The notes under the pieces were generated by a model. The model worked only from the letters and a program-made list of their open reading frames with translations, was not told the DNA's origin and ran no database searches. Shown here piece by piece: positions 8,099 to 36,820 of a stretch of 64,000 nt of DNA. Position 1 is the first letter of the stretch. Each line of letters begins with the position of its first letter. Both the position numbers and the translations under genes were made by a program. Source of the DNA: Candidatus Multivoradales bacterium (GTDB lineage: Bacteria; Acidobacteriota; Thermoanaerobaculia; Multivoradales; J023); contig CBDFLE010000005.1 in NCBI GenBank assembly GCA_965248925.1, forward strand, positions 736,001 to 800,000. Reading direction: 5' to 3'.

Positions 8099-8156
8099 TG
8101 TCGATTCCTTGCCGATGGTTGCTGGGTGGGTCTTGTTCAGGTTCCGCGGCGGAATC

Positions 8157-19279: not shown

Positions 19280-20506
19280 TCAGCCCTGAGGATGCCGCCG
19301 CTGGTAGGTCAGACGCAGGCCGGGGATCCAAGTCTCGCCGCCGTCCGTCGAAGACTCGTGTTCGCAGACAATCTGCTGCTGATCCATTCGCTGGCAGGAT
19401 CGCCGAGCGTGTCGCAGCTGACCGCCAACTTCGGCTGCAGTGCCGCTTTGGAGGTTGTCGAGGCGCAAATAAGGGCCTTGGTGATTGCCCTCAAAGAGTT
19501 CGCTGCGCAAGGTTGAGTCGTTGACCTCGGTGAGCTGATAGCGCTGGCGGAAGCGATCGTAGGTCAGGGTGCGGTACAGCTCGGCCGGCGCCCCGTCGGC
19601 ACCGGAATAGCGCAGGACTTCCCGCACCAAGCCACCACCGGCAGCCAATGTGAATGTGGCTTCGCCGCTGCTCTCGACCCATGTTTCTCGCGGCGCTATC
19701 CAAGACTCGACTTTGACCTGCCATTCACCCTCCAGGGCCTCACCCATGACGCCCATCTGGCCGGGTAGGGGTTTGGCGAAAATGGCCGAGTCTACTTGCT
19801 GCAAGATCTCCACCCGGTCGATTTCCATCACCCTATGGCGAGTGCCGAATTCACTCTCGATCAAATGCGGCAGCACCAGTCCCTGGACGCTGCGAAAATC
19901 GTCGAAGAAAGTGCGCTGCCGTGCCGGCCGGCCGAAATCCGCAGCCGCGGAGTCGCGAGCCACCTCGAGATAGGTGTCGGGGTCGAGATACCAAGTCTCC
20001 TCTTCGCCAGTGGCCCGTTCTAGGTCTAATTGCAACAACCACTGGCCATCGATCTCCGTTCGGCCCGCGAAGCTCAGCTGATGACCCTTGGCGGCATAGT
20101 CCATCAATGGGGTCGACAGCTCGGCGTCTTGCCACAGCACCGCCCGGTCGGCGGCGGCCAGGGGGATCGGCCAGTCGATGTCGTACCAAAGGTTGATCCA
20201 CCAAGCGAGTTCGCCGTCATAACCGATCACCACTCGCTTTGATCCTACGGTGTGGTCGAGGTGGTAGCGACCGTCGCGCATTTGATGGCGGACGAACTCA
20301 TGGCGCTGGCTGAAGCCGGTGAAGAAGCCGCTGCTGCGCAGGCCGGCGACTTGGCGCCAACTCTCCAAGCCGCCGCGAGCGGCAGCGTGTCGGGCAACCA
20401 CCTGGTCAACAGTGAGCGCAGCGTCCGCGGTCGTTTCGGCGGCAATACCACGAGCAGCCGGTAGCAGAAGAATAAGGGCGGCGAGAAGGGAGTAGAGTCG
20501 GTGCAT
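19280..20506 (-). CDS. Secreted protein: LolA-like (outer-membrane lipoprotein-sorting-like) domain plus DUF1579-like domain
   Basis: Signal peptide; VDQVVARHAAARGG..GYDGELAW..WYLDPDTYL; C-terminal LEGEWQV..TYDRFRQRY..DGGETW. Confidence 0.6.
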   Translation of the reverse strand: MHRLYSLLAALILLLPAARGIAAETTADAALTVDQVVARHAAARGGLESWRQVAGLRSSGFFTGFSQRHEFVRHQMRDGRYHLDHTVGSKRVVIGYDGELAWWINLWYDIDWPIPLAAADRAVLWQDAELSTPLMDYAAKGHQLSFAGRTEIDGQWLLQLDLERATGEEETWYLDPDTYLEVARDSAAADFGRPARQRTFFDDFRSVQGLVLPHLIESEFGTRHRVMEIDRVEILQQVDSAIFAKPLPGQMGVMGEALEGEWQVKVESWIAPRETWVESSGEATFTLAAGGGLVREVLRYSGADGAPAELYRTLTYDRFRQRYQLTEVNDSTLRSELFEGNHQGPYLRLDNLQSGTAAEVGGQLRHARRSCQRMDQQQIVCEHESSTDGGETWIPGLRLTYQRRHPQG

Positions 20507-20520
20507 CGTTCATATCTCCT

Positions 20521-21789
20521 TCAGCTGCCCAGCTCGTAGGCGACCATCTCTTGCCCGCTACGCAAGTAAAGGCGGCCCGCGGCCAGGGTCGGCGCGGTCC
20601 ATGCCTTGCCTTCCAATGCCTGCACCCGTCCTAGCTCGCGATAGTCCTCGCTGGTGGTATCGACCACCACCAGAAGGCCGCGATCGCTGAGCACGAACAA
20701 GCGCCCTTCACTGACTATCAGCGAACCCTTGCCAAACCCACGTTTAGCCCACTTCTGTTCGCCGTCGCTGGAGCGGATGCATTTCAGGGTGGCGTTGTCG
20801 AAGCCGTAGATCAGACCACCGTGGGTGACCGAGGAGCTGAAATGGTTCTTCATCACCCGGCTGGCCCAGCGAGACTCGACCACCATACCCGCATCCGTCT
20901 GCCGTAGGCTAAGCAGCACCGCCCCCACATCGCCGGAAGCGGAGAGGAAAAGCCCGTCGGGGGGAACCGCCAGGGGCATCGAGATCGCGCCGCCTTTTTC
21001 CGTCCATGGATGTTCCCAGACTATTTTGCCAACTGTTGGATCGACGGCCACGACCCGGTTGCCACGCGCCAGCACTACCAAATCCTTGCTGCCCTGCCGC
21101 AGGATGATAGGTGAGTTGTAGCTGGCGCCACCGTCGAGCAGAGTGTGTAGCTCTTTGCCCGTCGCTCTGTCGAAGATGCCCAAGGCGAGGTTGTCACCAC
21201 CACCAATTTGCACCACCAGGCGATCACCGATCACCAGTGGCGAGCTGGAGAAACCCCAGAGGGGCACTTCCGCGGCGTAGGCTTGGCGCAGATCCACTTG
21301 CCACAGAACTTCGCCGTCAGCACTGGCGAGGGCGGCCAAGTTGCCATAAGAACCGAGCACAAACACCCGCTGACCGTCGACGGTGGGAGTAGAGCGCGGA
21401 CCGTCGCCAAATTCGTCGACGAAGACTTCGCCCAGCTGCCGCCGCCAGATCTCATTGCCGGAGGAACTATCGATGGCAACCGCAAATTCGTAACGCGCGT
21501 CCTCTTGGCCGTCGCTGATCAAGGTGTAAAGCTGGTTGCCGACCACCGAGAGGCCGGAGAAGCCCGCCCCCAGAGGTCGCCGCCAAAGCTCACGCGGACC
21601 ATTCTCCGGCCAACTCGGCAGCAAACCTCGTTCGCTGGAGAGACCGTTGCGCTCGGGGCCGCGAAACTGCGGCCAATCGGTGCTGGACCGGGCGTTCTCC
21701 AGATCAACCTCGGCAGCCGCCAAAATCGGCGAACACAGCAGCAGGAACAACAGGGCAACGACCGTAAAGCCGCGGGATCGAACAGGCAT
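20521..21789 (-). CDS. PQQ-like beta-propeller repeat protein (BamB-like), secreted
   Basis: DWPQFRGPERNG, GPRSTPTV, SSSPLV, WTAPTLAAGRLYLR; start MPVRSR preceded by GGAGGT and followed by a signal peptide. Confidence 0.88.
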   Translation of the reverse strand: MPVRSRGFTVVALLFLLLCSPILAAAEVDLENARSSTDWPQFRGPERNGLSSERGLLPSWPENGPRELWRRPLGAGFSGLSVVGNQLYTLISDGQEDARYEFAVAIDSSSGNEIWRRQLGEVFVDEFGDGPRSTPTVDGQRVFVLGSYGNLAALASADGEVLWQVDLRQAYAAEVPLWGFSSSPLVIGDRLVVQIGGGDNLALGIFDRATGKELHTLLDGGASYNSPIILRQGSKDLVVLARGNRVVAVDPTVGKIVWEHPWTEKGGAISMPLAVPPDGLFLSASGDVGAVLLSLRQTDAGMVVESRWASRVMKNHFSSSVTHGGLIYGFDNATLKCIRSSDGEQKWAKRGFGKGSLIVSEGRLFVLSDRGLLVVVDTTSEDYRELGRVQALEGKAWTAPTLAAGRLYLRSGQEMVAYELGS

Positions 21790-22058
21790 GGCTACCTCCA
21801 TGGAGTTCAGTAGAGCGAGGCGGGATGAAGAAGTCTTGTTAGCACTGTCTACGCAACGCACGGCTGGGAGTTCGCCAGCGGCAGGATTTCGCGGATCTGT
21901 GGGGGTAAAGGGATCCAGGGTTGACTCCTTTAGTAAATGTGCAGGCTGACGCCGTCTGTCAAGAACTTTGGTTTTGTCGCAGATTGTCCGATGCCCCATC
22001 TTATTTTCCGGGCCGGCCGTGTGGGTTGGCCCGGATCCCCTTTTCGTCTCCCTCCATT

Positions 22059-22397
22059 TCAATCCCGTCGCTGCGGCTTGCGAAGCCGCCCGAAGAGGGT
22101 CCCCAGCCCATCTTCGACCAACTCGGCACCGGTGCGTACAGCGGTGCGGGTGGTATCGCGGATCACTTCGCTCGAGGGTAGAGCGGCCACTGCCTTGACC
22201 ACCCCGGCGCGGACTCCCTCCTCGACTCCTAGGCGGACCCGGCCCTCGATCTCGTCGCCATAGTGTTCGCCCATCTCCTGCAGACGCTGTTCGAGGCGCG
22301 GGCGGAAGCGCTTTTCGAACAACCACCAAGCCAGCAGCAAGGTCAGCAGGCTGGACAGCATCGCGGTCAGCAGAATCTCAATCAGTGCTAGCAACAT
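22059..22397 (-). CDS. Small membrane-anchored hypothetical protein
   Basis: MLLALIEILLTAMLSSLLTLLLAWWLF TM segment then amphipathic helices; 17 bp downstream of the DUF445 gene. Confidence 0.7.
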   Translation of the reverse strand: MLLALIEILLTAMLSSLLTLLLAWWLFEKRFRPRLEQRLQEMGEHYGDEIEGRVRLGVEEGVRAGVVKAVAALPSSEVIRDTTRTAVRTGAELVEDGLGTLFGRLRKPQRRD

Positions 22398-23784: not shown

Positions 23785-26700
23785 ATGAGTGACACTAAGA
23801 TCAGCGGATCAGGTGATCTTTTGGTCAAGCTGCGGCCTTCCAGCCGGCTCGGCGCGGCCGGTCGCCGCCTCGACCTCGAACCGCTGCACGATTCGCCCGT
23901 GGTCGCCCCTGGTGCGTTCGGCTTCGACGCCGCGCCGCAGTGGTTTCTGCTGCGGCGCTCCGAGGAGGCGGCATCGCCGTGGGATCAGGCCCATGCTCGA
24001 GTGGCCGCGCAACTAGGAATCGACGAGTCCGATGTGCTTTTCGCCGAGCCCGACCTCTATCATGCGGTCTATCCTGAATCTGATGCGGCTCCGGTAGGCG
24101 GAGCACTGGAGGCGGTCGGTGCCGATTGTGTGGCCCAAGCTCAAGACGGTAGGAGGGGTAAGGCTGCCAGGGCCGGCGAGTTTGCTTGGCACCTGGAGCG
24201 CGGATTCTCCCAGCTCGGCAAGGCCCGCGAGGCGGTCCACTTCGACACGCCGCGGACCCGCATCGGCCATCTCGACACCGGCTACTATCCCGCCCATGAG
24301 ACCCGCCCCGCCAACATCTTGCAGCATCTGGAAAGAAACTTCGTCGCTAAGGACGGCAATCTCTCCAACGCCGCCGATCCTGACAACAATCTGCTGTTAC
24401 TCGACAACTCAGGACACGGTACAGGCACCCTCGGAATCTTGGCCGGAGGGCCGGTCTCGGCCCATGGCGGCGAGATTCTCGGTGGTGCTCCTGAAGCGGA
24501 TATCGTTCCTATCCGCATCGCCGACAGCGTGGTCCTGCTGCGCACTAGTGCCTTGGCTCGCGCGGTGCGTTATGCCGCCGATGCCGGCTGTGCGGTGGCC
24601 ACTCTCAGTATGGGCGGGGTGCCCACCCGTGCTTGGGGCGAGGCGGTGGACGCGGCTTATGAGGCGGGCCTCTGTCTGTGCGCCGCCGCCGGCAATCATG
24701 TCGGGTTTGCGCCACCGCGCAAGCTGATCTATCCAGCCCGTTACCCGCGGGTGATCGCGGTCTGTGGGGTGATGGCCAACGGCAAGCCCTACGCCAAGCT
24801 CAAAGGCACCGCGATGGAGGGCAGCCACGGTCCAAAATCAGCCATGGCCTATGCTCTCGCCGCCTATACACCGAATATTCCCTGGGCCAAGTTTGGCTGC
24901 CCCGATGTGGTGCGGTTGAACGGCGAGGGGACTTCTAGCGCCACGCCGCAGGTGGCGGCGGCGGCGGCGCTGTGGATCGAGAAGTACAAACACCAACTGC
25001 CCGGCGATTGGCGCCGGGTCGAAGCGGTTCGCTTCGCCCTCTTCTCGTCGGCCAAGCACCCTTCGAATCTCAAGTACTTCGGTCGCGGGATAGTGCAAGC
25101 GGCGAAGGCGCTGGCGGTCAAGCCACGGCTGCACCTGGAGCGCAGCGGCCGCTCGGACAGCTCCTTTGCCTTCTTGCGGGTGGTGACTGGCCTGGGTATT
25201 GATCAGCCGACTTCGCGCGAGGAGATGTTCAACATCGAACTCGCCCAGCGCTGGCTGATGAACGACGACTTGCAGAAACTGGTACCGGACCCTGAAGCCG
25301 CCGGCGAATTGTCGGCACGGGAGCTGAAATCATTCATGGAGGCAGTGATCGAAGACCCTGACGCTTCCCATGCCTTGCGCCGCCATGTCCTCAGTCGTTA
25401 TCCGGTGGCGATCGGCCGGCCGGCGCCGAAAGCAGCGAGGATCAACCTCGAGCCCGAGCTACCGCCGGTGGGAATCGGCACCCCCAAGGTGCCAGCTCCT
25501 GCGCACCGGCGGCTGCGGGTCTACGCCCTGGATCCCAGCCTCTCGAAGCGTCTCGACACTGTCGACGTTAACGAGGTGACCCTGCGCGTGCGCTGGGAAG
25601 AACTCCGCCGCGGCCCGACTGGCGAGTACCTGCAAGTCAAGGACAAGGGGCCGCACAACTACCCTGGAGTCAATCTCAACGACCGCAGCCTGCTGGCTCA
25701 GGACGGCTGGGCGCCCTCCGAGGGCAATCCCCAGTTCCATCAGCAAATGGTCTATGCCGTGGCGATGAAGACCATCGAGCACTTCGAACGCGCCCTCGGC
25801 CGGCCAGTGCTGTGGCGGCCACGACCGAATCTCGAGAATGCCCACGACGACAGCGAATTCCTCCGTCGTTTGCAGATTCGGCCGCACGCCCTGCAGCAGG
25901 CCAATGCCTACTACAGCCCGCAGGAAGTGGCGCTGCTTTTCGGCTATTTCAAGGCCAAACGAGATAGTGGCTATTTGCCTGGCAGCCCGGTCTACACCTG
26001 CCTTTCCCACGATGTCATCGCCCACGAAACCACCCACGCCATTCTCGATGGCATGTACCGGCGTTTCAATGAGCCCACCAATGTCGATGTCTTGGCTTTT
26101 CATGAGGCCTTTGCCGACATCGTCTCTCTGCTGCAACACTTCACCATGCCCGAGCTACTAGCGCACGAGATTTCCCAAACCCGGGGCGATCTGGAAGCCG
26201 AATCAGTACTCGGTAAACTGGCGGTGCAGTTGGGCCGGGGAGCGGGCGGGCGCGGCGCCTTGCGCAATGCCATCGGTCGGGTCGAGCAGGGTGTGTGGCA
26301 CCGATTCGAGGCCGACCCCGAAGATCTGGCACAACGCCAGACGCCGCACGCCCGCGGCGCCGTGCTGGTGGCCGCCGTCTTCGATGCTTTGATCGCCATC
26401 TACAAGCAGCGCACCGCCGACCTGCTGCGCATCTCCACCGGCGGCACTGGGCTCTTGTCCGGTGGCGCCATTCATCCCGACTTGGTGCGCCGCTTGGCGG
26501 CGGAGGCCGCCAAGTCCGCCAGCCACGTCTTGGCGATGTGCATCCGTGCCCTCGACTACCTGCCACCGGTCGATGTCACCTTCTTTGACTTCCTCCGGGC
26601 GCTGATCACCGCTGATTTCGAGATGGTGGCCGATGATCGCCATAACTATAGGGTAGCTTTTGTCGAGGCTTTCAGCCGCCGGGCGATTTTCCCAGGCGAT

Positions 26701-27336
26701 CACGACGAGCAAGCTCACGAGGGCGCACGGGCCCTGTCAGTCGATACGTTGCGCTGGCAGGGGTTCAGCAAGTTCGCCATTCCCACCAAGGAACGCGGTC
26801 CGGTGATGGAGAAATACCAAGGCATTGTTGAGCAGCTGAAACGCTTTGCCGATGCCTGCCTCTATCTCAGTGATCGCGAAGTGCTCTTCCGCGAGACCCG
26901 GAAGCAGCGGATCATCCTGCACGCGCGCTTGAAGGCGGCCTTCGAGGTAGCTCCTGAGTTTGCCGAGTCCCTGGGTTTGGTTGCCGACCGCGGCTTCGAG
27001 GTCCATGCCCTGCGCCGTGCCATGCGGGTGCGGCTGGATGGTCGTGCGGCGCCACAGGTCTTTGTCTGCCTTACCCAATCGAGGCCGCTGGAGGAGCACC
27101 CGGCAAAGGGTAGGGCTCGGCGCTACTTCCGCGGTGGTTCGACCTTGGTGGTGGATCTCGCCAGGCCAGATGTTCCCAAGTACCGGATCGTCAAGAATAT
27201 CAAGAGCCACCAGCGACGCCGAGCAACAGCAGACTTCATACACACCGTCGAAGCCGACCCGCTGCGCCGGCTGTTCTTCTCGACCGACCGCGACGAGCCC
27301 TTCGCGGCTCTGCACGAACTAGCCGATGAGCATTAG
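23785..27336 (+). CDS. Fusion of S8 subtilase and gluzincin (M4/M36-like) metallopeptidase
   Basis: S8 motifs GHLDTG, GHGTGT, AAAGN, GTSSATP; metallo motifs HETTH and downstream HEAFAD; RBS GAGGAG; no signal peptide. Confidence 0.88.
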   Translation: MSDTKISGSGDLLVKLRPSSRLGAAGRRLDLEPLHDSPVVAPGAFGFDAAPQWFLLRRSEEAASPWDQAHARVAAQLGIDESDVLFAEPDLYHAVYPESDAAPVGGALEAVGADCVAQAQDGRRGKAARAGEFAWHLERGFSQLGKAREAVHFDTPRTRIGHLDTGYYPAHETRPANILQHLERNFVAKDGNLSNAADPDNNLLLLDNSGHGTGTLGILAGGPVSAHGGEILGGAPEADIVPIRIADSVVLLRTSALARAVRYAADAGCAVATLSMGGVPTRAWGEAVDAAYEAGLCLCAAAGNHVGFAPPRKLIYPARYPRVIAVCGVMANGKPYAKLKGTAMEGSHGPKSAMAYALAAYTPNIPWAKFGCPDVVRLNGEGTSSATPQVAAAAALWIEKYKHQLPGDWRRVEAVRFALFSSAKHPSNLKYFGRGIVQAAKALAVKPRLHLERSGRSDSSFAFLRVVTGLGIDQPTSREEMFNIELAQRWLMNDDLQKLVPDPEAAGELSARELKSFMEAVIEDPDASHALRRHVLSRYPVAIGRPAPKAARINLEPELPPVGIGTPKVPAPAHRRLRVYALDPSLSKRLDTVDVNEVTLRVRWEELRRGPTGEYLQVKDKGPHNYPGVNLNDRSLLAQDGWAPSEGNPQFHQQMVYAVAMKTIEHFERALGRPVLWRPRPNLENAHDDSEFLRRLQIRPHALQQANAYYSPQEVALLFGYFKAKRDSGYLPGSPVYTCLSHDVIAHETTHAILDGMYRRFNEPTNVDVLAFHEAFADIVSLLQHFTMPELLAHEISQTRGDLEAESVLGKLAVQLGRGAGGRGALRNAIGRVEQGVWHRFEADPEDLAQRQTPHARGAVLVAAVFDALIAIYKQRTADLLRISTGGTGLLSGGAIHPDLVRRLAAEAAKSASHVLAMCIRALDYLPPVDVTFFDFLRALITADFEMVADDRHNYRVAFVEAFSRRAIFPGDHDEQAHEGARALSVDTLRWQGFSKFAIPTKERGPVMEKYQGIVEQLKRFADACLYLSDREVLFRETRKQRIILHARLKAAFEVAPEFAESLGLVADRGFEVHALRRAMRVRLDGRAAPQVFVCLTQSRPLEEHPAKGRARRYFRGGSTLVVDLARPDVPKYRIVKNIKSHQRRRATADFIHTVEADPLRRLFFSTDRDEPFAALHELADEH

Positions 27337-27568: not shown

Positions 27569-28651
27569 CTAGCGCCGCATCGGTGCGGTTTCGGGCTCAG
27601 TATTGCCGAGGTTTGGTAACGCGTAGACCCGGCCTTGGAAGGTGCCAACGTAGAGGGTTCCTGCTGCCCAGCTGAGGCCTCTGGCGATCCCTTCCACCCG
27701 GGTGCTCCACAGCTCCTTCCCATCTTCGAGGCTCACGGCGAGAACCCGCCCACGCTGATTGCCAAGCAGGGCCATACCGTCACCGACCCACGGTTGGTAG
27801 GCGGTCCATTCGAGTTCTGAGGTGAGTTGCCAGCGCTCGCTCAACGGATCGCCGGTGAGGCAGGCGAGCCGGTGCTGTTGGCCGACGCGGCCGAGGGCTA
27901 GCAGGCAGTCGCCAGCGCTGGTGAGGTTGCCGTAGACGAACTCTGCCCAGCGCCTCTCGCTGCGAATCTCGCCATTGGTGGCATCGAGTAGCAGGATCGT
28001 GCCGTCGAGGGTGCCAACACCGATCTGCCCCGCGAAGGCGACCAACGAGGTGTTCAGAGTCCCGCCGACGGTGCTCTGCCACAGCAATGCGCCAGCGGCA
28101 GGGTCGAGGGCATAGACGGTGGCCGAGTCGCGAAAGAAGAAGCGGCCGCCAGCGAGCACCGGGTCGCCGTTCAAAGCCTCCTTGCCGGTCTCGGTCTGGT
28201 ACTGCCAGACGGTGCGGCCGGTGGCCTGATCAAGGGCGAAGGCGCGGCCCTCGACGGTGGCGCCGAGTACCAGATTGTCGTAGGCCAGCAGGTCGCTGGC
28301 CACATCTCCGAGGCCCGCTTGCCATTGCAGCGCGCCACTGGCGAGGTCGAAGGCGTAGATCAGCCCTTCCGCTGGCCCGTCGATGTCGGTGCCGACGATG
28401 ACCCGCTGGTCAGCGACCAGCAAATCACCGTGAAAGCTGGCCGGCGGTCCGTCGGTGGCGGTGTCATAGCGCCAGCGCAGCTTTCCGGTCTCGACATCGA
28501 GGGCGTCGAGCTTGCCGGAGCAGGAGCCGATCAGCACACTGTCCCCGACGACCGCCGGGGCGATGAACACTCAGCCTCTGGATTCGTGACGCCAGCGTTC
28601 GACGGGCTGGACGGCGGTGGTCAGTAGCAGCAGTAACGGGATCAGATGCAT
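27569..28651 (-). CDS. PQQ-like beta-propeller protein with in-frame TGA at codon 27 (candidate selenoprotein, 360 aa)
   Basis: RBS AGAGGAGGT, ATG at 28651, signal-like MHLIPLLLLLTTA, then ERWRHESRG-TGA-VFIAPAVVGDSVLIGSC in frame with the 333-aa ORF; repeated ALD..TG...W blades. Confidence 0.8.
28543..28560 (-). promoter_or_regulatory. Putative bacterial SECIS element
   Basis: CCCCGGC-GGUC-GUCGGGG 7-bp stem (one G-U pair) starting at nt 11 after the UGA, loop at +18..+21. Confidence 0.7.
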
Positions 28652-28745
28652 GGTACCTCCTCTGTTTACTGGGTACTACGCAAGTGGCGTATAGGATGTT
28701 TGCCGGCGGTGGGCCGGCGACCAGCATCGGGTGGCTGTACCATGC

Positions 28746-31322
28746 CTAAAGCGCGCCCCTCGCCAGCCGCCGAACGATGTCGGCGAAGCGCCGTTGCAAA
28801 CACCGTCCAACTGCCTCGTAGGACAGCTCTTCAGCCACTCTCCGGCGGCCCTCGGCACCTCTCCGCAAGGCTTCCTGGCGGTTGTCGTAGATCTCACGCA
28901 AGCGCTCGGCGAGGTGCCCTTCATCGATCTCCGCCCACTTCGACCCGGCCTGGTAAGGGCCCTGGTCAGTGGCCAGCTCGACCCGCCGATAGCGCACCGG
29001 GAAACCATCGTTGAGATCAAAGAAGTCGCGCACTCCCGAGTAGGGGGCGGCGACCACCGGCTTGCCCAAGGCCATCGCCTCAACCAGGGTCAGACCGAAT
29101 CCCTCGGCACGGTGGGGCGAAGCATAGGCATCGGCAGTGGCCAGCAGGCGCCAGGTGTCGGCACGATCGAGATAGTCGTCGAGCAAATGGATCGAGGCGC
29201 CCTTGGTAGCTTCGACGAGCCGCTGATGGGCGGCAGTGGCGAAGCTGGCTTGAGAGGTCTTGAGGAGCAGCTGAACGTCGTTGTCGGGGCTGAAGGCGCG
29301 GCGAAAAGCGCGTACCAGAGCGAGCGGGTTCTTGCGCTCGAAATGACTGAGGAAGTTGAACATGTAAAGCACCACGAAGGTACTCGGAGAGAGACCGAAG
29401 TGCTGCCGGTGGGCGCTGCTGTCGACCTCGAGGTCGGCCGGTGCTTCGATGGGCAGGGGCAGCCGGCGCACCGGGATGGGTGCCGCCGAGCCGATCGCGT
29501 CGACACAGTAGACGCTCGCACTCCACACCTCGTGCAGCGGATCGAAGGCCCGTGCCCAGCGGCGGGGGAATTCTTCCATCTCCCACAGCCAGTAGCCGAT
29601 GTTGAAACGACCGCCGAGAACCTCGCCGCCGAGCCGGGTGGTCACCGGCCCGACCTGGTCGGCGTTGACCACCAGTAGGTTGATGTCGTAGGGAAGGTCG
29701 CTGCTGCTGGCGGCGATGCTGAGGTCTTGCTGGCGGGCGACGACTCCCAAATCTAGCTTGTGCAAGGAGAATGGAATGGTTGTGGTATCGAGTGCCCGTG
29801 CCAGCCCGCGGGCTGCTTCGCCCATGCCGGTCTCGGCCTCTAGATAGCCCACCAGGTTGATTCCCGGATGATCCAGCCGCCGGGGCAGGGGCGCTCTCCG
29901 GGGGGCGCACCCTGGCTGACCGGTAGCTTCGGCGACAGCTCGCTTAGGGCGCAGCCATCGCTTGAGGGCGCGGCTGCGTTCAGCTCCCAGCAGTGTCTTC
30001 AGCCTGCCTTTGCCGGAGATCGCCAGAGGTGATCTCCAGGCCCGTTTGGCGCGGTTTCGCAGCCTTCTCTTCAAGCCGGCGGCGGTGAGCAGAGAAGCGC
30101 GCGATTCGCGGTGCAGCCCGCTCAGCAAGGGTTCGTCCAGGCCCAGCTCGTAGCGGCCATAGTCCCGCAGCCAGGAGGAGAACTCGGCCAACGAAGCCCG
30201 CTCGGGGTCGGGAAAGTCGGCATGCAGGTCAGGCCTGCTCGCCCACAAGTGGCTGAGCAGGCGGCTGAGGTAGGGCGGCCGAGCTTTCCTAGTGCCAGCC
30301 GGCGCGGTGAGCCAGGCGAAGAAGCTGTCGGCAGAATCAGTGGCGAAAGGGTTGCCGAAGTGCCGTCGCCGCTGCTCGTCGAGCGCCAGGTAGAGCCGTC
30401 GGGCGGCGGGTGGGATTCGCACGCCGTTGTCAAACCGGGCGAAGGCGAAGGGCCAGCCCTTGCAATCGGCCCAACCCTCGGCGAAGAGGCGGTCGCGGTA
30501 GCGCCGGTAGAGTTCGGCGGCCTCGCCAATTTGGTCCAGGGTAAAGCGGTCCTGATGCTTGGAAACGTGCTGCAAGGCGTCGGGCTGAATACCACTGAAG
30601 TGAAAGAAGATCAGCGGCCGGCCGTTGACCTGCGCCACCTCGCCATCCAAGCTCACCCTGCGGCCATGGAGATTCCAATAGGCCACGTTGTAACCCGGAT
30701 CGCGCAGGATGTGAACTCCGGAGAATAGGCCAGGCACCAGATCGATCCACTTTTGATCGACGAACAGCCCTTGATCGATGCGCACCACGCATTGATCCCA
30801 CAGCCGTTCCTGCCACCAGCGCAGCAGACGCCGAGTCTCGTCGCTGTGCCGCAGGCCGATGAATCCCAGGTTGTAGGTACCGCTCTGCAGGATGCTCTGC
30901 TCGCCGGGGTGAGCGTCGTCCTCGATCGGCTGATCGAGATGGGGGGTTAGCACTACCTGATGCTCGCCCAGCAGGCGATCGAGCTCGCCCAAGTCGCCGC
31001 TGATCCAGATGTCGGGGTCGATGTAGAGCAAGCGCTCGACGCCGTGATGTTCGAAAAGGTGTTCGAGGAAGTAGGGTTTTGCCGCTGTATTGCCTTCGAG
31101 CACGGTGTATTTGAAAAGGAATCCAGCGCGTTCGGGGATCTTAAGCTGTTCCACTTCGAGCAGTTCGAAAGGCTCGTCCGAGTCGTCGATAAAGCCTTCG
31201 TTGCGGTCGTAAAGCAGCACGAAGAAGTGCCCGGCCGGGTGGCTGTCGGCGAACGAACGAGCCAACACCCGCGCGAACGGCAGGTAATTCTTCGACACGA
31301 TGGTGCAGGCGTCTAGGGGCAT
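28746..31322 (-). CDS. Two-domain glycosyltransferase (N-terminal GT-A-like domain plus C-terminal GT4)
   Basis: N-terminal CTIVSKNYL..LYIDPDI..YNLGFIG..DQKWIDL..YNVAYWN; C-terminal RKNP, HRAEGFGLTLVEAMALGKPVV. Confidence 0.88.
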   Translation of the reverse strand: MPLDACTIVSKNYLPFARVLARSFADSHPAGHFFVLLYDRNEGFIDDSDEPFELLEVEQLKIPERAGFLFKYTVLEGNTAAKPYFLEHLFEHHGVERLLYIDPDIWISGDLGELDRLLGEHQVVLTPHLDQPIEDDAHPGEQSILQSGTYNLGFIGLRHSDETRRLLRWWQERLWDQCVVRIDQGLFVDQKWIDLVPGLFSGVHILRDPGYNVAYWNLHGRRVSLDGEVAQVNGRPLIFFHFSGIQPDALQHVSKHQDRFTLDQIGEAAELYRRYRDRLFAEGWADCKGWPFAFARFDNGVRIPPAARRLYLALDEQRRRHFGNPFATDSADSFFAWLTAPAGTRKARPPYLSRLLSHLWASRPDLHADFPDPERASLAEFSSWLRDYGRYELGLDEPLLSGLHRESRASLLTAAGLKRRLRNRAKRAWRSPLAISGKGRLKTLLGAERSRALKRWLRPKRAVAEATGQPGCAPRRAPLPRRLDHPGINLVGYLEAETGMGEAARGLARALDTTTIPFSLHKLDLGVVARQQDLSIAASSSDLPYDINLLVVNADQVGPVTTRLGGEVLGGRFNIGYWLWEMEEFPRRWARAFDPLHEVWSASVYCVDAIGSAAPIPVRRLPLPIEAPADLEVDSSAHRQHFGLSPSTFVVLYMFNFLSHFERKNPLALVRAFRRAFSPDNDVQLLLKTSQASFATAAHQRLVEATKGASIHLLDDYLDRADTWRLLATADAYASPHRAEGFGLTLVEAMALGKPVVAAPYSGVRDFFDLNDGFPVRYRRVELATDQGPYQAGSKWAEIDEGHLAERLREIYDNRQEALRRGAEGRRRVAEELSYEAVGRCLQRRFADIVRRLARGAL

Positions 31323-31352
31323 CGTTCTGTTCTGCAACTCGGTGATTGCGGC

Positions 31353-32432
31353 TTAGCAGCCGGCCACTGCATGGCGGTAGAAGTCTAGGGTAGCTGCGGC
31401 GGTGGCGGGCCAAGAAAAAAGCGCTGCCCGCTGTAATCCCCGCTGCCGCAGGTCGGCGGCCAGCGCTGCATCGCCCAACAGCCGTTCGAGGGCGCTGGTG
31501 ATCGACGCCGTATCGAGTGGATCCACCAACAGGGCGGCATCGCCGGCCACCTCCGGCATCGAGGTGGTGTTAGCGGTGATCACTGGCGCGCCACAGGCCA
31601 TCGCTTCGAGAATCGGCAAGCCAAATCCCTCGGCCAGCGAGGGAAAAACGAAAGCTGAGGCGCAGCTGTAGAGATCCGCCAATTGCTGCCGCTTGACATG
31701 CCCCAGCCGATGGACGAAGTCTGCTCCCTCCAGCCGCCGCTCCAGCTGCTTATTGCGCCAGCCCCCACCGGCGGCGATCGCCAGCGGAAATCTTCGCCGC
31801 AGCTCTGCCGGCAAGGCGCAATGCGCTTCGAGCAGGCGCAGGAGGTTCTTACGCGGCTCCAGGGTGCCGACGGCGAGCACGTAACCACCCTCCAGGCCGA
31901 GCTGTTGCAGCCGTTGTCGTGCGGCGGCCGCCTCTTGCGGTCGCATATCGACCCCGGCCGCCGAATGCACCACCTGCAAGCGATCTCCGTCGATGCCAAA
32001 ATGCGCGGTCGCGGCTTTGGCGGTGGCTGCGGAAACGGCCACCACGTGCGCTCCGTCGAGCACCGCCCGCAGCATCCCTTCGAGGCAGTGCAAGCGGTTC
32101 TCCAGGGTGTGGCACTCGGGATGGGTGAGGAAGGTCAAATCGTGGCAAGTCATCACCACTGGACCGCGAAAGCCCACCGGCCACGCCAGAGTCGGACTAT
32201 GAAAAATATCCAGTCGGTCCTCGGCCAGCGGGCGGGCGGCCAAACTGACGTTGTCAGGCAGCTCGGGCAGCGCCGCTCTCAGCGCCACTTCATCCACTGG
32301 CTGTAGCAGGCTGTGCAGGCTCAGCTGATGGTCGCCGGGCAAGCGGGCCATGCCGTTGAGCAACTCGACACTGTAAGTGCCGATGCCATCGCGAGGCGGC
32401 AAGACCTTGGAAATATCGAAGCCGATACGCAA
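31353..32432 (-). CDS. Glycosyltransferase family 4
   Basis: RIGFD..GIGTY, GTLEPRKN, PSLAEGFGLPILEAMACG; start taken at TTG 32432. Confidence 0.9.
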   Translation of the reverse strand: MRIGFDISKVLPPRDGIGTYSVELLNGMARLPGDHQLSLHSLLQPVDEVALRAALPELPDNVSLAARPLAEDRLDIFHSPTLAWPVGFRGPVVMTCHDLTFLTHPECHTLENRLHCLEGMLRAVLDGAHVVAVSAATAKAATAHFGIDGDRLQVVHSAAGVDMRPQEAAAARQRLQQLGLEGGYVLAVGTLEPRKNLLRLLEAHCALPAELRRRFPLAIAAGGGWRNKQLERRLEGADFVHRLGHVKRQQLADLYSCASAFVFPSLAEGFGLPILEAMACGAPVITANTTSMPEVAGDAALLVDPLDTASITSALERLLGDAALAADLRQRGLQRAALFSWPATAAATLDFYRHAVAGC

Positions 32433-32440
32433 GTGGAATC

Positions 32441-32764
32441 CTAGAGGTTGGCGGTCTCGTCGGCGAGCAATGACAGGTGATGGTGCAAACGCTCGGCGGC
32501 AGCCGCGGGCAAGACTTGCCGCTGTTTGGCCAACTGGACCCAACTACTCAGCCGATCGATTCGCTGATCGAGAAGTAGCCGATCGACTTGCGCTTGTAGG
32601 TGGTCGGCACGCAAACTGAGGGCCAAGGCTCGATCGTGAGATTCCTGGGACAATTGCTGCTGGGCGGCGCTAGAACGACGTTGCAGCACCAAGACCAAGA
32701 AGGTCAAGGCGGTCGTGGCCCCGGCGAGGAGCAGGAATGCGGTCAGTATTTGCGCGCTCTGCAC
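32441..32764 (-). CDS. Small membrane-anchored coiled-coil hypothetical protein
   Basis: TM segment ILTAFLLLAGATTALTFLVLVL then helical region; fills the gap within the operon; start uncertain. Confidence 0.55.
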   Translation of the reverse strand: MQSAQILTAFLLLAGATTALTFLVLVLQRRSSAAQQQLSQESHDRALALSLRADHLQAQVDRLLLDQRIDRLSSWVQLAKQRQVLPAAAAERLHHHLSLLADETANL

Positions 32765-32822
32765 TTGCTTCGGTCCTTGCTGCGATCCTGGCTGTGATGA
32801 CGAAGTGGTTGGTTGGCCGATC

Positions 32823-34763
32823 TTAGGGGATTTCGCCTCGCGGCGGAGGAGATTCACGGACCCAGTAGTGACGCACTCGCAACCGGCAGTCCTGACCCAA
32901 CGAGGCGCGCGCCAAGCGGCCCAATTCAGCCACCAAGGCGGTGCTGACCGGCCTGGGACTCTCGATCGCAACTTCCAGCACCGGCTGATGCTGTTGACGG
33001 ACCAGCTGCATGCCAACTATCCGTGCCCCCGCGGTGCTGGCAACTGCTCGCTCGAGGCGCTGTCTGAGAGGCGTCTCGAGAGTGGATTGGGGCTCGCCAG
33101 CTCGCAGCCCCGAAAGCAACTCAGAGCCCAGGGGCATGGCCAGCACCGCCACCGCTACTAGCAGAGCAAGAAACCCCAAGCGCACCCAGGTCTGGCCGCT
33201 GGCTCCTCGCTTACCACGCACTCCGGCGGCGTAGAAGGCGAGGCCAGCGCCGAGCACGATCGCCACCACGTTGGTGCCGAAAAGCAAGGCTGCGCCCCGC
33301 GCGTTGGCCACTTGCCCCTGCGCGATGGACACCCCGGTAGTAGCGATCGGCGGCACCAAGGCGGCGGCGATCGCTACCCCCGGCAAAGCGGCCACCAGGC
33401 CGGGCCGGCCCAAGCAGTAGGCCGCCGCGATACCCGACAACCAGGCCACTCCGAGATCGAGCAGGGTAGGTCCACCGCGAGCCAGCAATTCAGCGGTGAG
33501 TTCCGGCAACGGCACCACCGCGCCCAAAAAAATGCCGATCACCAGGGCGGTGAGATAGCCGTAGAGGAGGGCTTTGGCGGCGTCCCGCAGCAACGGTAGA
33601 TTGCCTTGCACCAGGCCCAGTCCAGCGCCGAGGATAGGGGTCATCAACGGTGCCACCAACATCGCGCCGATCACCACCGCCGCGCTCGATTGCAGCAGCC
33701 CGAGGGTAGCGATGGCGGTCGACAGGCCGATCAGAGCGAAGAAATCAAAACGCCACAGCGAGCCTGATTGAAGGGTCTCGAACAACCTGACCCGCTCTTC
33801 ACGAGTCATTTGCGGGATGGTCAGATCGAGCCATCTGCCGAGTCGGGTGCGCAGCCTGTGATGCAGACGCCAGCGTTCTCGCACCACTCCCACCACCAGC
33901 GCCTGGTGGCCGCTCAGCAGGCGCTCGGGAACGGTGCCGAAGAGCTGACGACGTAGCTGACCGACGCTGGAAGCGCCCAACAGAAGCAGGTCGGTGGGGT
34001 CTTCGAGGGCCTTGCGGATACCATCGTCGACCCGGTCGGCCAGTTCCACCTGGCGCCGGATCTGGGCACTGTCGGCGATGCCAGCGGCGGCCAACGACTT
34101 TGCCAGGGAGCGTTGGCCGACCTCCCAAGCCAGGTCGAGAATCGGCGCTTGCACGTTCAAGGCTCGTAATTCACCCTGCTCAGCTTGGATCAGCTTGTCG
34201 CCGATGCTTAAGGCCGCTTTGGCATGGTGGCCGCCGGCAGTGGGTACCAGGACCCTCTGGCACGACAGGTCGGTCGCTGAGTCCTGCGAGTCTGCATCGG
34301 CAATACCCACTAGCAGAGTGCGACAGGGAGCGGCGGTGAACAGCTTGCGGGCCAAGCTTGCACCGCCGCTGGGCTTGCGCAAGGCACTCTTGGCGACCAG
34401 TAACAGTTCCGCTTGGGCCTCTCCTTGGGCCGCCAACACGTCGCGCAGCGGATAGCTGGTGCAGAGTTCGATCAGCTCGATGGGATGCTCATCCGGCGGC
34501 TCGGCAGCTGCCGCCGGTGGCGGGGTGAAATCACCGCTGCTCAGCAAACGTCGCAACTCGCGGGCGGTCTGGCGCGACAGCTTCGAAGCGCTGTCGGGCA
34601 GGGTGTCTTGCAGCTGGTAGGTGCGGGATTCTCTGTCGCTGGGGTTGCCCTCGACCACAGCGACCACCAGCTCAGTCGCAAACGCTCGGGCCAGGCGCAG
34701 GCCGAGGCTGGTCACCGTGGTGACCTCTCGTTGGTTGCTGAGAACGGCGAAAATACTCATCAC
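32823..34763 (-). CDS. Universal-stress-domain plus DUF389 membrane protein
   Basis: USP-like RVLVPTAGG..DLLLLGAS..LFGTVPERLL; DUF389 AVVIGAMLVAPLMTPI, LPGVAIAAALVPP. Confidence 0.85.
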   Translation of the reverse strand: MMSIFAVLSNQREVTTVTSLGLRLARAFATELVVAVVEGNPSDRESRTYQLQDTLPDSASKLSRQTARELRRLLSSGDFTPPPAAAAEPPDEHPIELIELCTSYPLRDVLAAQGEAQAELLLVAKSALRKPSGGASLARKLFTAAPCRTLLVGIADADSQDSATDLSCQRVLVPTAGGHHAKAALSIGDKLIQAEQGELRALNVQAPILDLAWEVGQRSLAKSLAAAGIADSAQIRRQVELADRVDDGIRKALEDPTDLLLLGASSVGQLRRQLFGTVPERLLSGHQALVVGVVRERWRLHHRLRTRLGRWLDLTIPQMTREERVRLFETLQSGSLWRFDFFALIGLSTAIATLGLLQSSAAVVIGAMLVAPLMTPILGAGLGLVQGNLPLLRDAAKALLYGYLTALVIGIFLGAVVPLPELTAELLARGGPTLLDLGVAWLSGIAAAYCLGRPGLVAALPGVAIAAALVPPIATTGVSIAQGQVANARGAALLFGTNVVAIVLGAGLAFYAAGVRGKRGASGQTWVRLGFLALLVAVAVLAMPLGSELLSGLRAGEPQSTLETPLRQRLERAVASTAGARIVGMQLVRQQHQPVLEVAIESPRPVSTALVAELGRLARASLGQDCRLRVRHYWVRESPPPRGEIP

Positions 34764-34781
34764 GGCCTGAATGCTATCGAA

Positions 34782-35633
34782 TCAGCTGCCATGGTCGTCA
34801 TTCCAGACCGCCAGCAGCTGCTGGCGTAGCTCGGGATCTTGCTGCCGCGCCGAGCGCCGTCGCTGCCGCCAGCACAGCAAGCGCTGTTCCCAGCGCGGGC
34901 GCTGTTTGGCGTAATAGTGGCGCTGAGCACGGCGGTAATGGACTTCTCCCTGCCGGCTGGAACTCGAACCACCCTTGACGTGCCAGGCTAGAGCCGCGTG
35001 CACTTGCCCCAGCCGCCAACCGGCGAGCCGCAGCCGGCGGCACAAGTCAACGTCTTCGAAGTAGAGAAAGAAGTCCTCGTCGAAGCCGCCGACCGCCGCG
35101 AAAGCTCGACGCCGCAACAGCACACAAGCAGCGGTATACCAGCCCGGCCCGCTGAGCAGGCGCAAGAATGGCGGCAGCAGGCGATGATTCCAGGCCGAGC
35201 CCTCGAACGGGTTGCGCAGCTTCTGCAGCGCCTCGCCCAGGATGCCGGTCTCGGGCACCCAAGTGAACTGCCACCCGGAATTCGGATAGCGGAGCTGCGG
35301 CGCGACCCACGCCAGGCGCGAATCTGCATCGAGCGCGCGGTCGAGGAGGCTCAGAGCATTGTCAGCCAGCCAAGCGTCAGAGTTGATCATCAATAGCCGA
35401 TCACCGCCGGCAATCGCCACGCCACGGTTGTTGGCGGCGCCAAAGCCGAGGTTGGTTTCTAGCTGCATCAGGCGGCAGGTGGGGAATTCCTTGCGCACCA
35501 TGTCTGCCGAGCCATCGGTCGAGGCGTTGTCGACCACTACCACCTCGGTGATGCTTGGTTGGCTAGCCAGGGACCCTAAGCAGGCTCGCAGGTGGTGCCG
35601 CGAGCCGTGGCTGACGACGATGGCTGAGATCAT
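34782..35633 (-). CDS. Glycosyltransferase family 2
   Basis: VVVVDNASTDGS, NLGFGAANNRG, INSD, GGFDEDFFLYFEDVDLC. Confidence 0.92.
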   Translation of the reverse strand: MISAIVVSHGSRHHLRACLGSLASQPSITEVVVVDNASTDGSADMVRKEFPTCRLMQLETNLGFGAANNRGVAIAGGDRLLMINSDAWLADNALSLLDRALDADSRLAWVAPQLRYPNSGWQFTWVPETGILGEALQKLRNPFEGSAWNHRLLPPFLRLLSGPGWYTAACVLLRRRAFAAVGGFDEDFFLYFEDVDLCRRLRLAGWRLGQVHAALAWHVKGGSSSSRQGEVHYRRAQRHYYAKQRPRWEQRLLCWRQRRRSARQQDPELRQQLLAVWNDDHGS

Positions 35634-36820
35634 CCCGCCGCCTCCCGCAGATGGTCGAGAAAGAGCTCAGCTGAGGCTCGCCAGCTGAGTTCTCCCACCC
35701 GCCGTCGGCCTTCCTCGGCTATCTGCTGGCGAGCCTCGGGATCCTCGAGCGCTTGGCCCAGGACCTGCTTCACGGCGGCGGCATCCAGAGCCGAGCGGTA
35801 GGGATACTCGGGCCACAACTCATCGAAGGCCAGGCCGCTGCTGACCACCGGCGCCGTGCCACAGGCCAACGATTCCAACGGCGGCAAACCAAACCCTTCG
35901 TAGGTCGAGAGATAGAACGACAGCTCGGCATGCCGGTAGAGGAGAGGCAGATCGGCTTCTTCCACCCAGCCCAGCCGCTCCACTTGCCGAGCCACCGCGG
36001 ACTCGCCTATCAAGCGCCCCAAACCACCTCGCTGCGGCAGCCGATCCTGACCGGCGATCACCAAGCGAAGCCGTGGGTAGCGAGGCAGCAGAGCGGCGAA
36101 GGCTGGCAACACTAGGTCGAGCCGGCGCCGGGGCAGGGCCGAGCCGGCGAAGAGCAAATACGGTGCGCGCACCCCAAGCTCACCCAGCCGCGCGGCTTCA
36201 ACCGCCGCCTGCCCTGGCGGCGAGGGTGAGAACACCTCATCTACCGCCTCCGGTACCAAGCCGATGCGCTCAACCGGCACCCCGTAGGTGGCTCTCAGAT
36301 CCTCGACGATAGCCTGACTCGGTACCAGCACTCGCTGCGCTCGCCGCGCCGCTTGGCGGGCCAGAAATCGTCGCCGCCAGCGCTCCTTGAAGGGAAACTC
36401 CTGTGGCAAGTGCTCAAACGACAGATCGTGCAAGGTGACCACTCCGGGCAGACTGGTTGGCGGCAGACTGTAAGCTGGCGAGTAGAGCAAGTCGAGAGCC
36501 ATCCCGCGCATCAGGCGCGGCAAAATCAGCTGCTCCCAGAAGATCGGCCGAGCGCTAGGCCGCCGGTCGAAGAAGGCGCGAAAGCGACCGTCCGCCGACT
36601 TGGCCTGGGTCGCGTCGGCGGCAGCTTCACCCCACAGACGGTGACTGAAGCCGTCACCCTTGAAAAACAAGCTGAAGCGATCGTTGCCACCTAGCTGGGC
36701 GACGCCGCCGAGCATGCCCTCGAGATAGCGGCCGACTCCGGTAGCTCGGCCTTCCATTTCGTAGGCAACGACGCCGACGTGCAAGCCGGCCGAACTTTCT
36801 CTGGGTGCGGGATGATTCAT
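35630..36820 (-). CDS. Glycosyltransferase family 4
   Basis: TGVGRY, VVTLHDL, YEGFGLPPLESLACG; ATGA overlap with the GT2 gene. Confidence 0.9.
   Translation of the reverse strand: MNHPAPRESSAGLHVGVVAYEMEGRATGVGRYLEGMLGGVAQLGGNDRFSLFFKGDGFSHRLWGEAAADATQAKSADGRFRAFFDRRPSARPIFWEQLILPRLMRGMALDLLYSPAYSLPPTSLPGVVTLHDLSFEHLPQEFPFKERWRRRFLARQAARRAQRVLVPSQAIVEDLRATYGVPVERIGLVPEAVDEVFSPSPPGQAAVEAARLGELGVRAPYLLFAGSALPRRRLDLVLPAFAALLPRYPRLRLVIAGQDRLPQRGGLGRLIGESAVARQVERLGWVEEADLPLLYRHAELSFYLSTYEGFGLPPLESLACGTAPVVSSGLAFDELWPEYPYRSALDAAAVKQVLGQALEDPEARQQIAEEGRRRVGELSWRASAELFLDHLREAAG

Follow-up and report, generated by a model that had tools for sequence, protein, structure and literature searches.

The stretch of DNA analysed here, hereafter the window, comprises 64,000 nucleotides from Candidatus Multivoradales bacterium (assembly GCA_965248925.1, contig CBDFLE010000005.1, positions 736,001 to 800,000 of the forward strand). 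On its minus strand it carries a gene for a PQQ-like beta-propeller protein that contains an in-frame TGA codon close to its 5' end. The gene-caller open reading frame (ORF) at this locus encodes 333 amino acids (27569-28570) and begins at a GTG codon immediately 3' of the TGA. Upstream of the TGA, the ribosome-binding site AGAGGAGGT precedes an ATG, from which the same frame runs through a hydrophobic, signal-like N-terminus (MHLIPLLLLLTTAVQP) into the TGA at codon 27. An initial annotation, made from the sequence alone, had proposed that the locus encodes a novel exported selenoprotein, in which the UGA is decoded as selenocysteine (Sec) with the aid of a hairpin resembling the selenocysteine insertion sequence (SECIS) of Escherichia coli fdhF. 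Its description of the locus was accurate. The ribosome-binding site, the ATG, the hydrophobic N-terminus and the TGA all lie on the minus strand where they had been placed, and the translation reproduces the residues quoted around the TGA and up to Cys44 (W-R-H-E-S-R-G-(TGA)-V-F-I-A-P-A-V-V-G-D-S-V-L-I-G-S-C). Likewise, the hairpin (CCCCGGC, loop GGUC, GUCGGGG) starts 11 nucleotides after the UGA and has its loop at +18 to +21. The coordinates of the gene and its features are collected in Table 1.

Table 1. Features of the propeller gene in the window (positions count from the first nucleotide of the window).
Feature	Position	Strand	Basis or remark
Read-through coding sequence, 360 residues and TAG	27569-28651	-	translated with TGA as U; predicted exported eight-bladed PQQ_2-type beta-propeller, putative Sec at residue 27
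Ribosome-binding site AGAGGAGGT	28655-28663	-	direct sequence reading; spacer ACC at 28652-28654, then ATG
Start codon ATG	28649-28651	-	sequence
Signal-peptide-like N-terminus MHLIPLLLLLTTAVQP	28604-28651	-	sequence; 60 of 62 distinct family members have a hydrophobic 10-mer ahead of the TGA
Strand of residues 20-23 with invariant Trp20, predicted outer strand closing blade 8	28583-28594	-	DSSP strand E20-23
UGA codon 27, very probably read as selenocysteine	28571-28573	-	TGA at this column in orthologues and metagenome loci; Cys in P0101 and P0119
SECIS-type hairpin: 5' arm 28554-28560, GGUC loop 28550-28553, 3' arm 28543-28549	28543-28560	-	pairing, covariation, loop conservation
Cys44 codon (TGC), proposed partner of Sec27	28520-28522	-	invariant in the 12-orthologue alignment
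His74 codon, in invariant Phe-His; place in blade 2 probably equivalent to that of Sec27 in blade 1	28430-28432	-	alignment and secondary structure of the model
Asp89 codon, invariant; turn of blade 2 probably matching the Cys44 turn of blade 1	28385-28387	-	alignment and secondary structure of the model
Gene stop TAG	27569-27571	-	sequence

The in-frame TGA is shared by the relatives of the gene. A search of 60 related genomes that tolerated read-through retrieved four orthologues (33-40% identity), each with one TGA within the match, and their translations place this TGA exactly at the column of the window. The sequences follow a common pattern, W-x4-(G/H)-G-(TGA)-V-(F/Y)-x2-P-x-V-x-G...S-C-S-G. 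A phylum-wide profile search of 400 genomes yielded 22 genomes with matches at E <= 1e-25. Matches above 190 bits contained the TGA in 11 of 12 cases, the exception being G209, and matches below 130 bits in none of 11. Altogether, 12 genomes contributed 14 orthologues, at 27-40% identity to the window protein, and all 14 have the TGA at the window's column; one of these 14 (G083) and the TGA-less orthologue of G209 are unpublished. Metagenome contigs were then scanned with an alignment beginning 3' of the TGA and with patterns that all lie downstream of the Sec column, so that the scan was blind to codon 27. It returned 71 loci, 67 of them readable at the Sec column. The codon was TGA in 58, TGG in four, CCC in two, and GAG, CAT and GTA in one locus each; in three loci the column lay beyond the contig end, and in one the N-terminal match was absent. 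The nine readable loci without TGA are different propeller lineages. The 58 TGA loci are not all independent, since they collapse to 49 distinct segments of 72 nucleotides. The expectation that homologues would keep the TGA at this column was thus borne out, other residues being confined to distant, non-orthologous propellers. In the carrier genomes TGA is otherwise an ordinary stop codon, with which three of the orthologues themselves terminate. The window sequence itself was compared with contigs from three sequencing runs, which showed zero differences over the region 28400-28760 at a depth of 9-17. All three runs go back to a single sample, from which the window itself probably came, and are not independent; hence the argument that a sequencing error at the TGA is unlikely rests more on the independent genomes with the same codon.

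Some loci related to the family depart from this arrangement. A second copy in G033 (L067, near 8049-9077, contig C5) is probably a duplicate in decay: the TGA and Cys are still there, the signal peptide and Trp strand are gone, and a frameshift affects its C-terminal half. The orthologue of G255 has a second in-frame TGA (L045, 1867-1869), 112 codons past the first, at a position where its nearest relative, G093, has Trp. This second TGA looks more like the product of a nonsense mutation (TGG to TGA), or of an error, than like another Sec codon. Four metagenome loci (L134, L136, L137 and L138) form a separate propeller lineage that has the motif V-F-A-A-P-A-V-x-G-D in common with the family. 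At the aligned column this lineage has TGG (Trp), one base off TGA, and a Tyr replaces the partner Cys.

Coding conservation extends to the 5' side of the TGA. All 63 distinct peptides from this side, pooled from genomes and metagenomes, have Trp at -7 and 62 have Gly at -1, and the signal-peptide-like hydrophobic 10-mer is almost as constant (Table 1). The codon directly 3' of the TGA is more variable. It is GTG in the window and in 21 of the 49 distinct metagenome segments, and none of ATG, GTG or TTG in the other 28 (GTC in 20, ATT in three, GTA in two, ATC in two and GTT in one), while several genome orthologues have GTC, CTG, CTC, CTT or ATC at this place. As 28 of 49 segments have no such codon there, an immediate restart 3' of the stop is not a conserved option. 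In the databases, the family is found in shortened form. We looked at the best 150 hits from an exhaustive profile search of 1.84 billion protein representatives (clusters at 50% identity). Fifty-six of these are single propellers, all of which start at or after the residue following Sec, 29 of them exactly one residue past it. Every gene-called copy seen is cut at the TGA and labelled as BamB or as a PQQ-binding-like repeat protein; one public record, for example, gives a family member as a 335-residue PQQ-binding-like repeat protein from a metagenome-assembled genome of the Thermoanaerobaculia, which points to the Acidobacteriota. With high probability the gene encodes one Sec-containing protein of 360 residues and should not be split into a peptide of 26 residues and an ORF of 333.

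The residue that the initial annotation proposed as a partner of Sec27 is Cys44, 17 residues downstream. A Cys at this position is found in all 58 metagenome loci with TGA and in none of the nine without. The column is invariant among the 12 aligned orthologues, and within the best 150 representatives it is Cys in 50 of 50 truncated sequences scored by script and, by eye, in P0093. Only three of these 150 representatives (P0101, P0119 and P0121) are full-length and span the Sec column. P0101 and P0119 have signal peptides and carry Cys at both the Sec and the Cys44 column; judging from these columns, they represent the Cys forms that a selenoprotein family should have. In P0121 the two positions are Ala and Val, and the G209 orthologue has Ala at the Sec column and no Cys. 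Sec and Cys44 thus occur together (58 of 58) and vanish together (2 of 2, P0121 and G209), a strict association which speaks for the partnership that had been suggested. Overall, 72 TGA loci stand against two Cys and two null forms. A Poribacteria locus (L041) with a Cys at a similar motif was considered as a further Cys homologue and rejected, as it encodes a kinase-linked propeller in which this Cys belongs to another blade and the second Cys is at +15.

In the 12-orthologue alignment two further residues, His74 and Asp89, are invariant. In beta-propellers the top face carries both the loop that leads into a blade and the turn linking its strands 2 and 3. On this topology, Sec27, in the loop entering blade 1, and Cys44, in the hairpin turn that follows within blade 1, would both lie on the top face, and His74 and Asp89 are predicted by the model to take the equivalent places in blade 2.

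Conservation of the hairpin was analysed in two sequence sets. For the 14 genome sequences, pairing in the 7-bp helix amounts to 79.6%, and its covariation score of 0.272, compared with 0.144 for shuffled alignments, was reached by one of 500 shuffles. In 61 published sequences 85.2% of the cells are paired, as against 76.1 +/- 1.0 in the shuffles (0 of 500), and the covariation of 0.226 versus 0.087 was likewise reached by none of 500 shuffles and also exceeds that of all six slid registers. The pair 24:39 joins the third base of a Thr/Ala codon to the third base of a Gly codon, so that both of its positions are synonymous; it is made up of CG (29), GC (12), UA (6), AU (2), GU (2) and UG (2). 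Synonymous recodings that use the gene's own codons give weaker hairpins than the natural sequences (mean z -1.68; 12 of 14 below -0.8). The loop sequence GGTC is present in 47 of the 49 distinct metagenome segments and in 11 of the 14 genome orthologues. Among 20 control propeller sequences, which have no TGA and carry the same Pro-x-Val-x-Gly motif, it is found in one. At the level of codon choice, a GGUC loop demands a G-ending Ala or Thr codon and GUC instead of GUG for Val.

The genome from which the window derives has the complete machinery for selenocysteine insertion. The four genes selA, selB, selC and selD, whose presence the initial annotation had made a point to be checked, were all found: SelA with 431.7 bits, the wing domain of SelB with 67.8 bits, SelD with 282.3 bits, and a tRNA-Sec with 70.8 bits, which ARAGORN also calls as SeC with anticodon tca. 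Furthermore, SelA is encoded in 13 of 13 genomes with an orthologue. A model for the formate dehydrogenase alpha subunit and one for the Mo-Fe4S4 domain matched only frames without internal stops in the source genome. Since no Sec-containing formate dehydrogenase, an enzyme that commonly accounts for the retention of Sec, was found with these models, the propeller may be one reason why the genome keeps the trait. Genome-wide lists of candidates for further selenoprotein genes, 52 from the hairpin pattern and 373 from coding signals based on GC content at third codon positions, were too noisy. In the hairpin scan of the source genome, one stretch of 45 nucleotides, identical or one base off, turned up 12 times, eight times in contig C4 and four times near the end of contig C5 (2.30-2.35 Mb), which suggests a multi-copy element or gene family.

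The read-through product belongs to the PQQ-type propellers by sequence and by predicted fold. It matches Pfam PQQ_2 (PF13360) with 160.5 bits (cut-off 27.6). An AlphaFold2 model built from a 12-sequence alignment, with a predicted local distance difference test score (pLDDT) of 89.4 and a predicted template modelling score of 0.86, shows eight four-stranded blades. In this model (DSSP assignment), residues 20-23, which are encoded 5' of the UGA, form the strand that completes blade 8, and the mean pLDDT over residues 21-30 is 91. None of the NCBIfam models was matched above its cut-off by the read-through product. The BamB equivalogs TIGR03300 and NF008351 scored 128 and 85.2 bits (cut-offs 285.2 and 423), and the PQQ-dependent alcohol/methanol dehydrogenase model TIGR03075 scored 59.8 bits (cut-off 480), through one blade-sized stretch. 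Among solved structures, Foldseek placed BamB nearest (template modelling (TM) score 0.79-0.81, identity 21-23%), together with the tetrathionate hydrolase of Acidithiobacillus ferrooxidans (PDB 6l8a and 7cqy; TM score 0.75-0.77, identity 18-20%). A profile search of solved structures also gave BamB as the best natural sequence match (E about 1e-34), with a partial match to tetrathionate hydrolase at about 1e-21. The window protein is not a BamB orthologue. It is proposed to be exported by means of its N-terminal signal peptide; patterns for twin-arginine signals and lipoboxes proved unspecific.

Recoding of UGA by SelB and a SECIS element is a known bacterial mechanism, and we propose that it operates here. 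A ribosome arriving at UGA codon 27 would meet, 11 nucleotides downstream, the 7-bp hairpin with its GGUC apical loop. Recruitment of SelB and its Sec-tRNA(Sec) by this hairpin would lead to the insertion of selenocysteine. The product would then be exported and fold into an eight-bladed PQQ-repeat propeller of the BamB type, with the strand encoded before the UGA closing the last blade. On the propeller, Sec27 and Cys44 would act jointly. They could form a redox-active selenenylsulfide, or they could serve as two soft chalcogen ligands that bind a metal, a metalloid or a sulfur or selenium substrate; His74 and Asp89 of blade 2 would be alongside. That UGA 27 is read as selenocysteine, as had been suggested, is very likely in view of the orthologue column, the Cys homologues, the covariation and the machinery. 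The explanation as a whole, in which the Sec reading weighs most, we regard as likely. That Sec27 and Cys44 form a redox or soft-ligand centre is put forward, from the conservation of the two residues, with moderate confidence.

Several observations weigh against decoding as selenocysteine. When a 71-nucleotide segment with the window hairpin is folded by itself, it does not stand out from dinucleotide shuffles (z = -0.56; 58 of 200 shuffles fold as well or better), and because this result is not significant the single-sequence fold was dropped as evidence. Two of the 14 orthologues lie near zero, without excess stability over their synonymous recodings. At least five of the seven pairs are formed in 15 of the 20 TGA-less controls, so the stem is partly a by-product of encoding Pro-x-Val-x-Gly in GC-rich DNA. 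The pair 28:35 is non-standard in 26 of the 61 published sequences, and in several the register is shifted by one. An Rfam scan of 28450-28660 with E values up to 10 returned only a chance match to a viral frameshift site. With 301 of 401 genomes in the phylum sample encoding it, SelA is so common that its occurrence in all carrier genomes lends little support. Only two Cys homologues were found, known as protein sequences only, and the signal-like N-terminus of the window copy does not begin with positive charges, which makes for a weak signal peptide. On the sequences compared, the evidence beyond chance is comparative and does not reside in the hairpin itself. Of the earlier claim of an fdhF-like SECIS, the conserved hairpin with its compensatory changes therefore stands, while the hairpin alone is weak evidence. 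The folding of the controls, the single-sequence fold and the Rfam result would suit a read-through independent of SelB, in which a near-cognate tRNA inserts a standard amino acid (Trp or Cys) and the hairpin is a by-product of the protein motif; the TGG in the separate propeller lineage would fit this as well. We give it a small chance, since GGUC is kept at synonymous sites in the family and hardly ever in the controls, two wobble positions covary in Watson-Crick fashion, stability exceeds that of synonymous recodings, and those relatives in which the codon is replaced have Cys there. The presence of SelA in all carriers and the ordinary use of TGA as a stop in these genomes, including the ends of three orthologues, also speak against it. 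A very small chance is left to two coupled ORFs, namely a leader peptide that ends at the UGA and a propeller re-initiated at the next codon. The GTG after the TGA in the window and in a minority of the metagenome segments would allow such an arrangement; however, most segments and several orthologues offer no start codon there, the export signal that the propeller needs and the invariant Trp strand of blade 8 lie upstream of the UGA, and the full-length Cys homologues are single proteins. Finally, the TGA could be a nonsense mutation or a sequencing error in a pseudogene, or the true gene could be the 333-residue ORF. Gene callers do give this ORF, and degraded copies exist in the family, as illustrated by the duplicate in G033 and the second TGA of G255. 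This possibility is negligible all the same: 14 orthologues and 58 metagenome loci share the TGA at one column, the flanking sequence is conserved as coding on either side, three run assemblies match the window, albeit from one sample, and a 333-residue product would have neither the signal peptide nor the strand that closes blade 8.

The function of the Sec residue is less firmly placed than its decoding. His74 and Asp89 are retained in forms without Sec and Cys, which counts against a common centre and means that Sec27, Cys44, His74 and Asp89 need not form one site; also on the negative side for the assigned function, a comparison of the orthologue loci revealed no neighbouring partner common to all. 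Sec27 could thus be real and yet act without Cys44 as redox partner, as a lone nucleophile or as a ligand together with His74 and Asp89, with Cys44 having a structural role. His74 and Asp89 are invariant and take equivalent top-face positions of blade 2, and by fold the nearest enzyme is tetrathionate hydrolase, which relies on an acidic catalytic residue and has no cofactor. The strict co-occurrence of Sec and Cys44, their joint loss and the fusion of one family member to a Redoxin domain (with a score exactly at the cut-off) argue against such a solitary role for Sec27, which we consider unlikely. From the co-variation of the two columns, a functional pair of Sec27 and Cys44 is somewhat probable. 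A more far-reaching proposal would be that the protein is the first beta-propeller selenoenzyme, cofactor-free, with a top-face centre of Sec27, Cys44, His74 and Asp89 that serves extracytoplasmic chalcogen or metalloid chemistry in soil bacteria, for example on polysulfide or polythionate, on selenium or tellurium oxyanions, or on soft metals. We offer this tentatively, as a joint claim that is doubtful in its entirety.

Comparison with known systems brings out both likenesses and differences. The SECIS of E. coli fdhF is a stem-loop that begins about 11 nucleotides after the UGA, with G and U in its apical loop. The locus in the window has the in-frame UGA, the intragenic stem-loop at about the same distance, a GGUC loop about 18-21 nucleotides after the UGA, and selABCD in the genome. 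It differs in that the host protein is unrelated, the helix is a short, perfect or near-perfect GC helix of 7 bp that also encodes Pro-x-Val-x-Gly, and no bulged U is evident. With BamB (YfgL), the lipoprotein of the outer-membrane assembly machine, the predicted protein shares an extracytoplasmic location and eight blades closed by an N-terminal strand. Unlike BamB, it stays below the equivalog cut-off and has the Sec/Cys/His/Asp set, and the window copy is without a lipobox. The tetrathionate hydrolase of A. ferrooxidans is likewise an extracytoplasmic, PQQ-type eight-bladed propeller, one that acts on sulfur-sulfur compounds; by analogy, it shows that a PQQ-type propeller fold can carry out chalcogen chemistry. 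Given the low identity and the absence of the Sec/Cys pair from that enzyme, the resemblance is a lead and not a sign of membership.

Exported selenoproteins with other folds have recently been proposed. SaoB, the substrate-binding protein of the SAO system, is presented in the main text of the Haft preprint (doi 10.1101/2022.07.06.499078) as a selenoprotein with an export signal, and a TonB-dependent receptor selenoprotein with an export signal in the main text of the deep-Sep study (PMC12013277). As far as these main texts go, both were recognised, like the propeller, from a conserved TGA and Cys homologues, and both have an export signal and truncated database entries; they differ from it in fold and context. 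PQQ, BamB or propellers are not mentioned in the main texts of the Haft preprint (doi 10.1101/2022.07.06.499078) and the deep-Sep study (PMC12013277). The full-text literature searched, comprising main texts only, contained no propeller, PQQ or BamB-like selenoprotein, although a listing under another name is possible. Nor does such a family appear in the passages looked up in a 2026 review, including its table of 119 families with their accessions, in BSepDB or in a 2022 review. The remark in the initial annotation that propellers of this kind are not a known selenoprotein family agrees with these texts and with the NCBIfam result. According to the 2026 review, most characterised selenoproteins have a thioredoxin-like fold; Sec would here be placed on an exported beta-propeller, a scaffold absent from the selenoprotein texts searched. 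The gene is thus, very probably, a representative of a large selenoprotein family that we did not find described. The family comprises at least 56 clusters at 50% identity among the best 150 matches, 58 metagenome loci and 12 carrier genomes in the one phylum searched. Once the Sec codon is recognised, members would regain their signal peptide, the propeller-closing strand and a likely active-site residue, and many database entries would be corrected. Sec forms are far more numerous than Cys forms, which is unusual among selenoproteins. This ratio suggests that sulfur is apparently unable to replace selenium in the reaction, and the dominance of Sec makes the family a good case for asking what selenium offers beyond sulfur.

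The genes around the propeller vary between loci. In the window, the Sec propeller gene is the last in a same-strand run of glycosyltransferase genes (28746-36820, minus strand; GT4, GT4, DUF389/Usp, GT2, GT4), the listing of which is followed by a DinB-family gene. On the other side, a gene for an S8 subtilase of 1183 residues (23785-27336, plus strand) is convergent with it. This glycosyltransferase and S8 context was not seen at the orthologue loci. In G012, a gene for an AcrB-type resistance-nodulation-division (RND) efflux pump (L068, 4804-7911) lies directly upstream of the Sec propeller on the same strand. An RND pump gene also adjoins the propeller in one metagenome lineage, and genes for pumps of the same family are found 3 to 6 kb off in G390 (L074, 1935-5099; 3 kb) and G143. 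A ChrR-like cupin gene adjoins the propeller in G255, G093 and G167, accompanied in G255 and G093 by a UbiE-type methyltransferase gene. Clustering of stop-to-stop frames, which is confounded by alternative frames in GC-rich DNA, was used only for the RND pump and methyltransferase clusters.

Some members of the family carry C-terminal extensions, namely P0052, P0054, P0093, P0094, P0106, P0143 and P0152, plus the G380 protein (L044, 2479-3321). Recognised C-terminal fusion domains are DUF6265 in three cases and glyoxalase/VOC in one, and a ChaN/Tiki-like domain in P0054 scores 27.9 bits, just over its cut-off of 27.7. The extension of P0052 has no Pfam match, and the extensions of P0052 and G380 resemble that of P0054 by eye only. 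The window itself encodes a second PQQ_2 propeller about 5 kb from the Sec propeller (602 residues; 20521-22329, minus strand), which has no in-frame TGA and is adjoined by a gene for a 408-residue protein with a C-terminal DUF1579 domain (19280-20506, minus strand).

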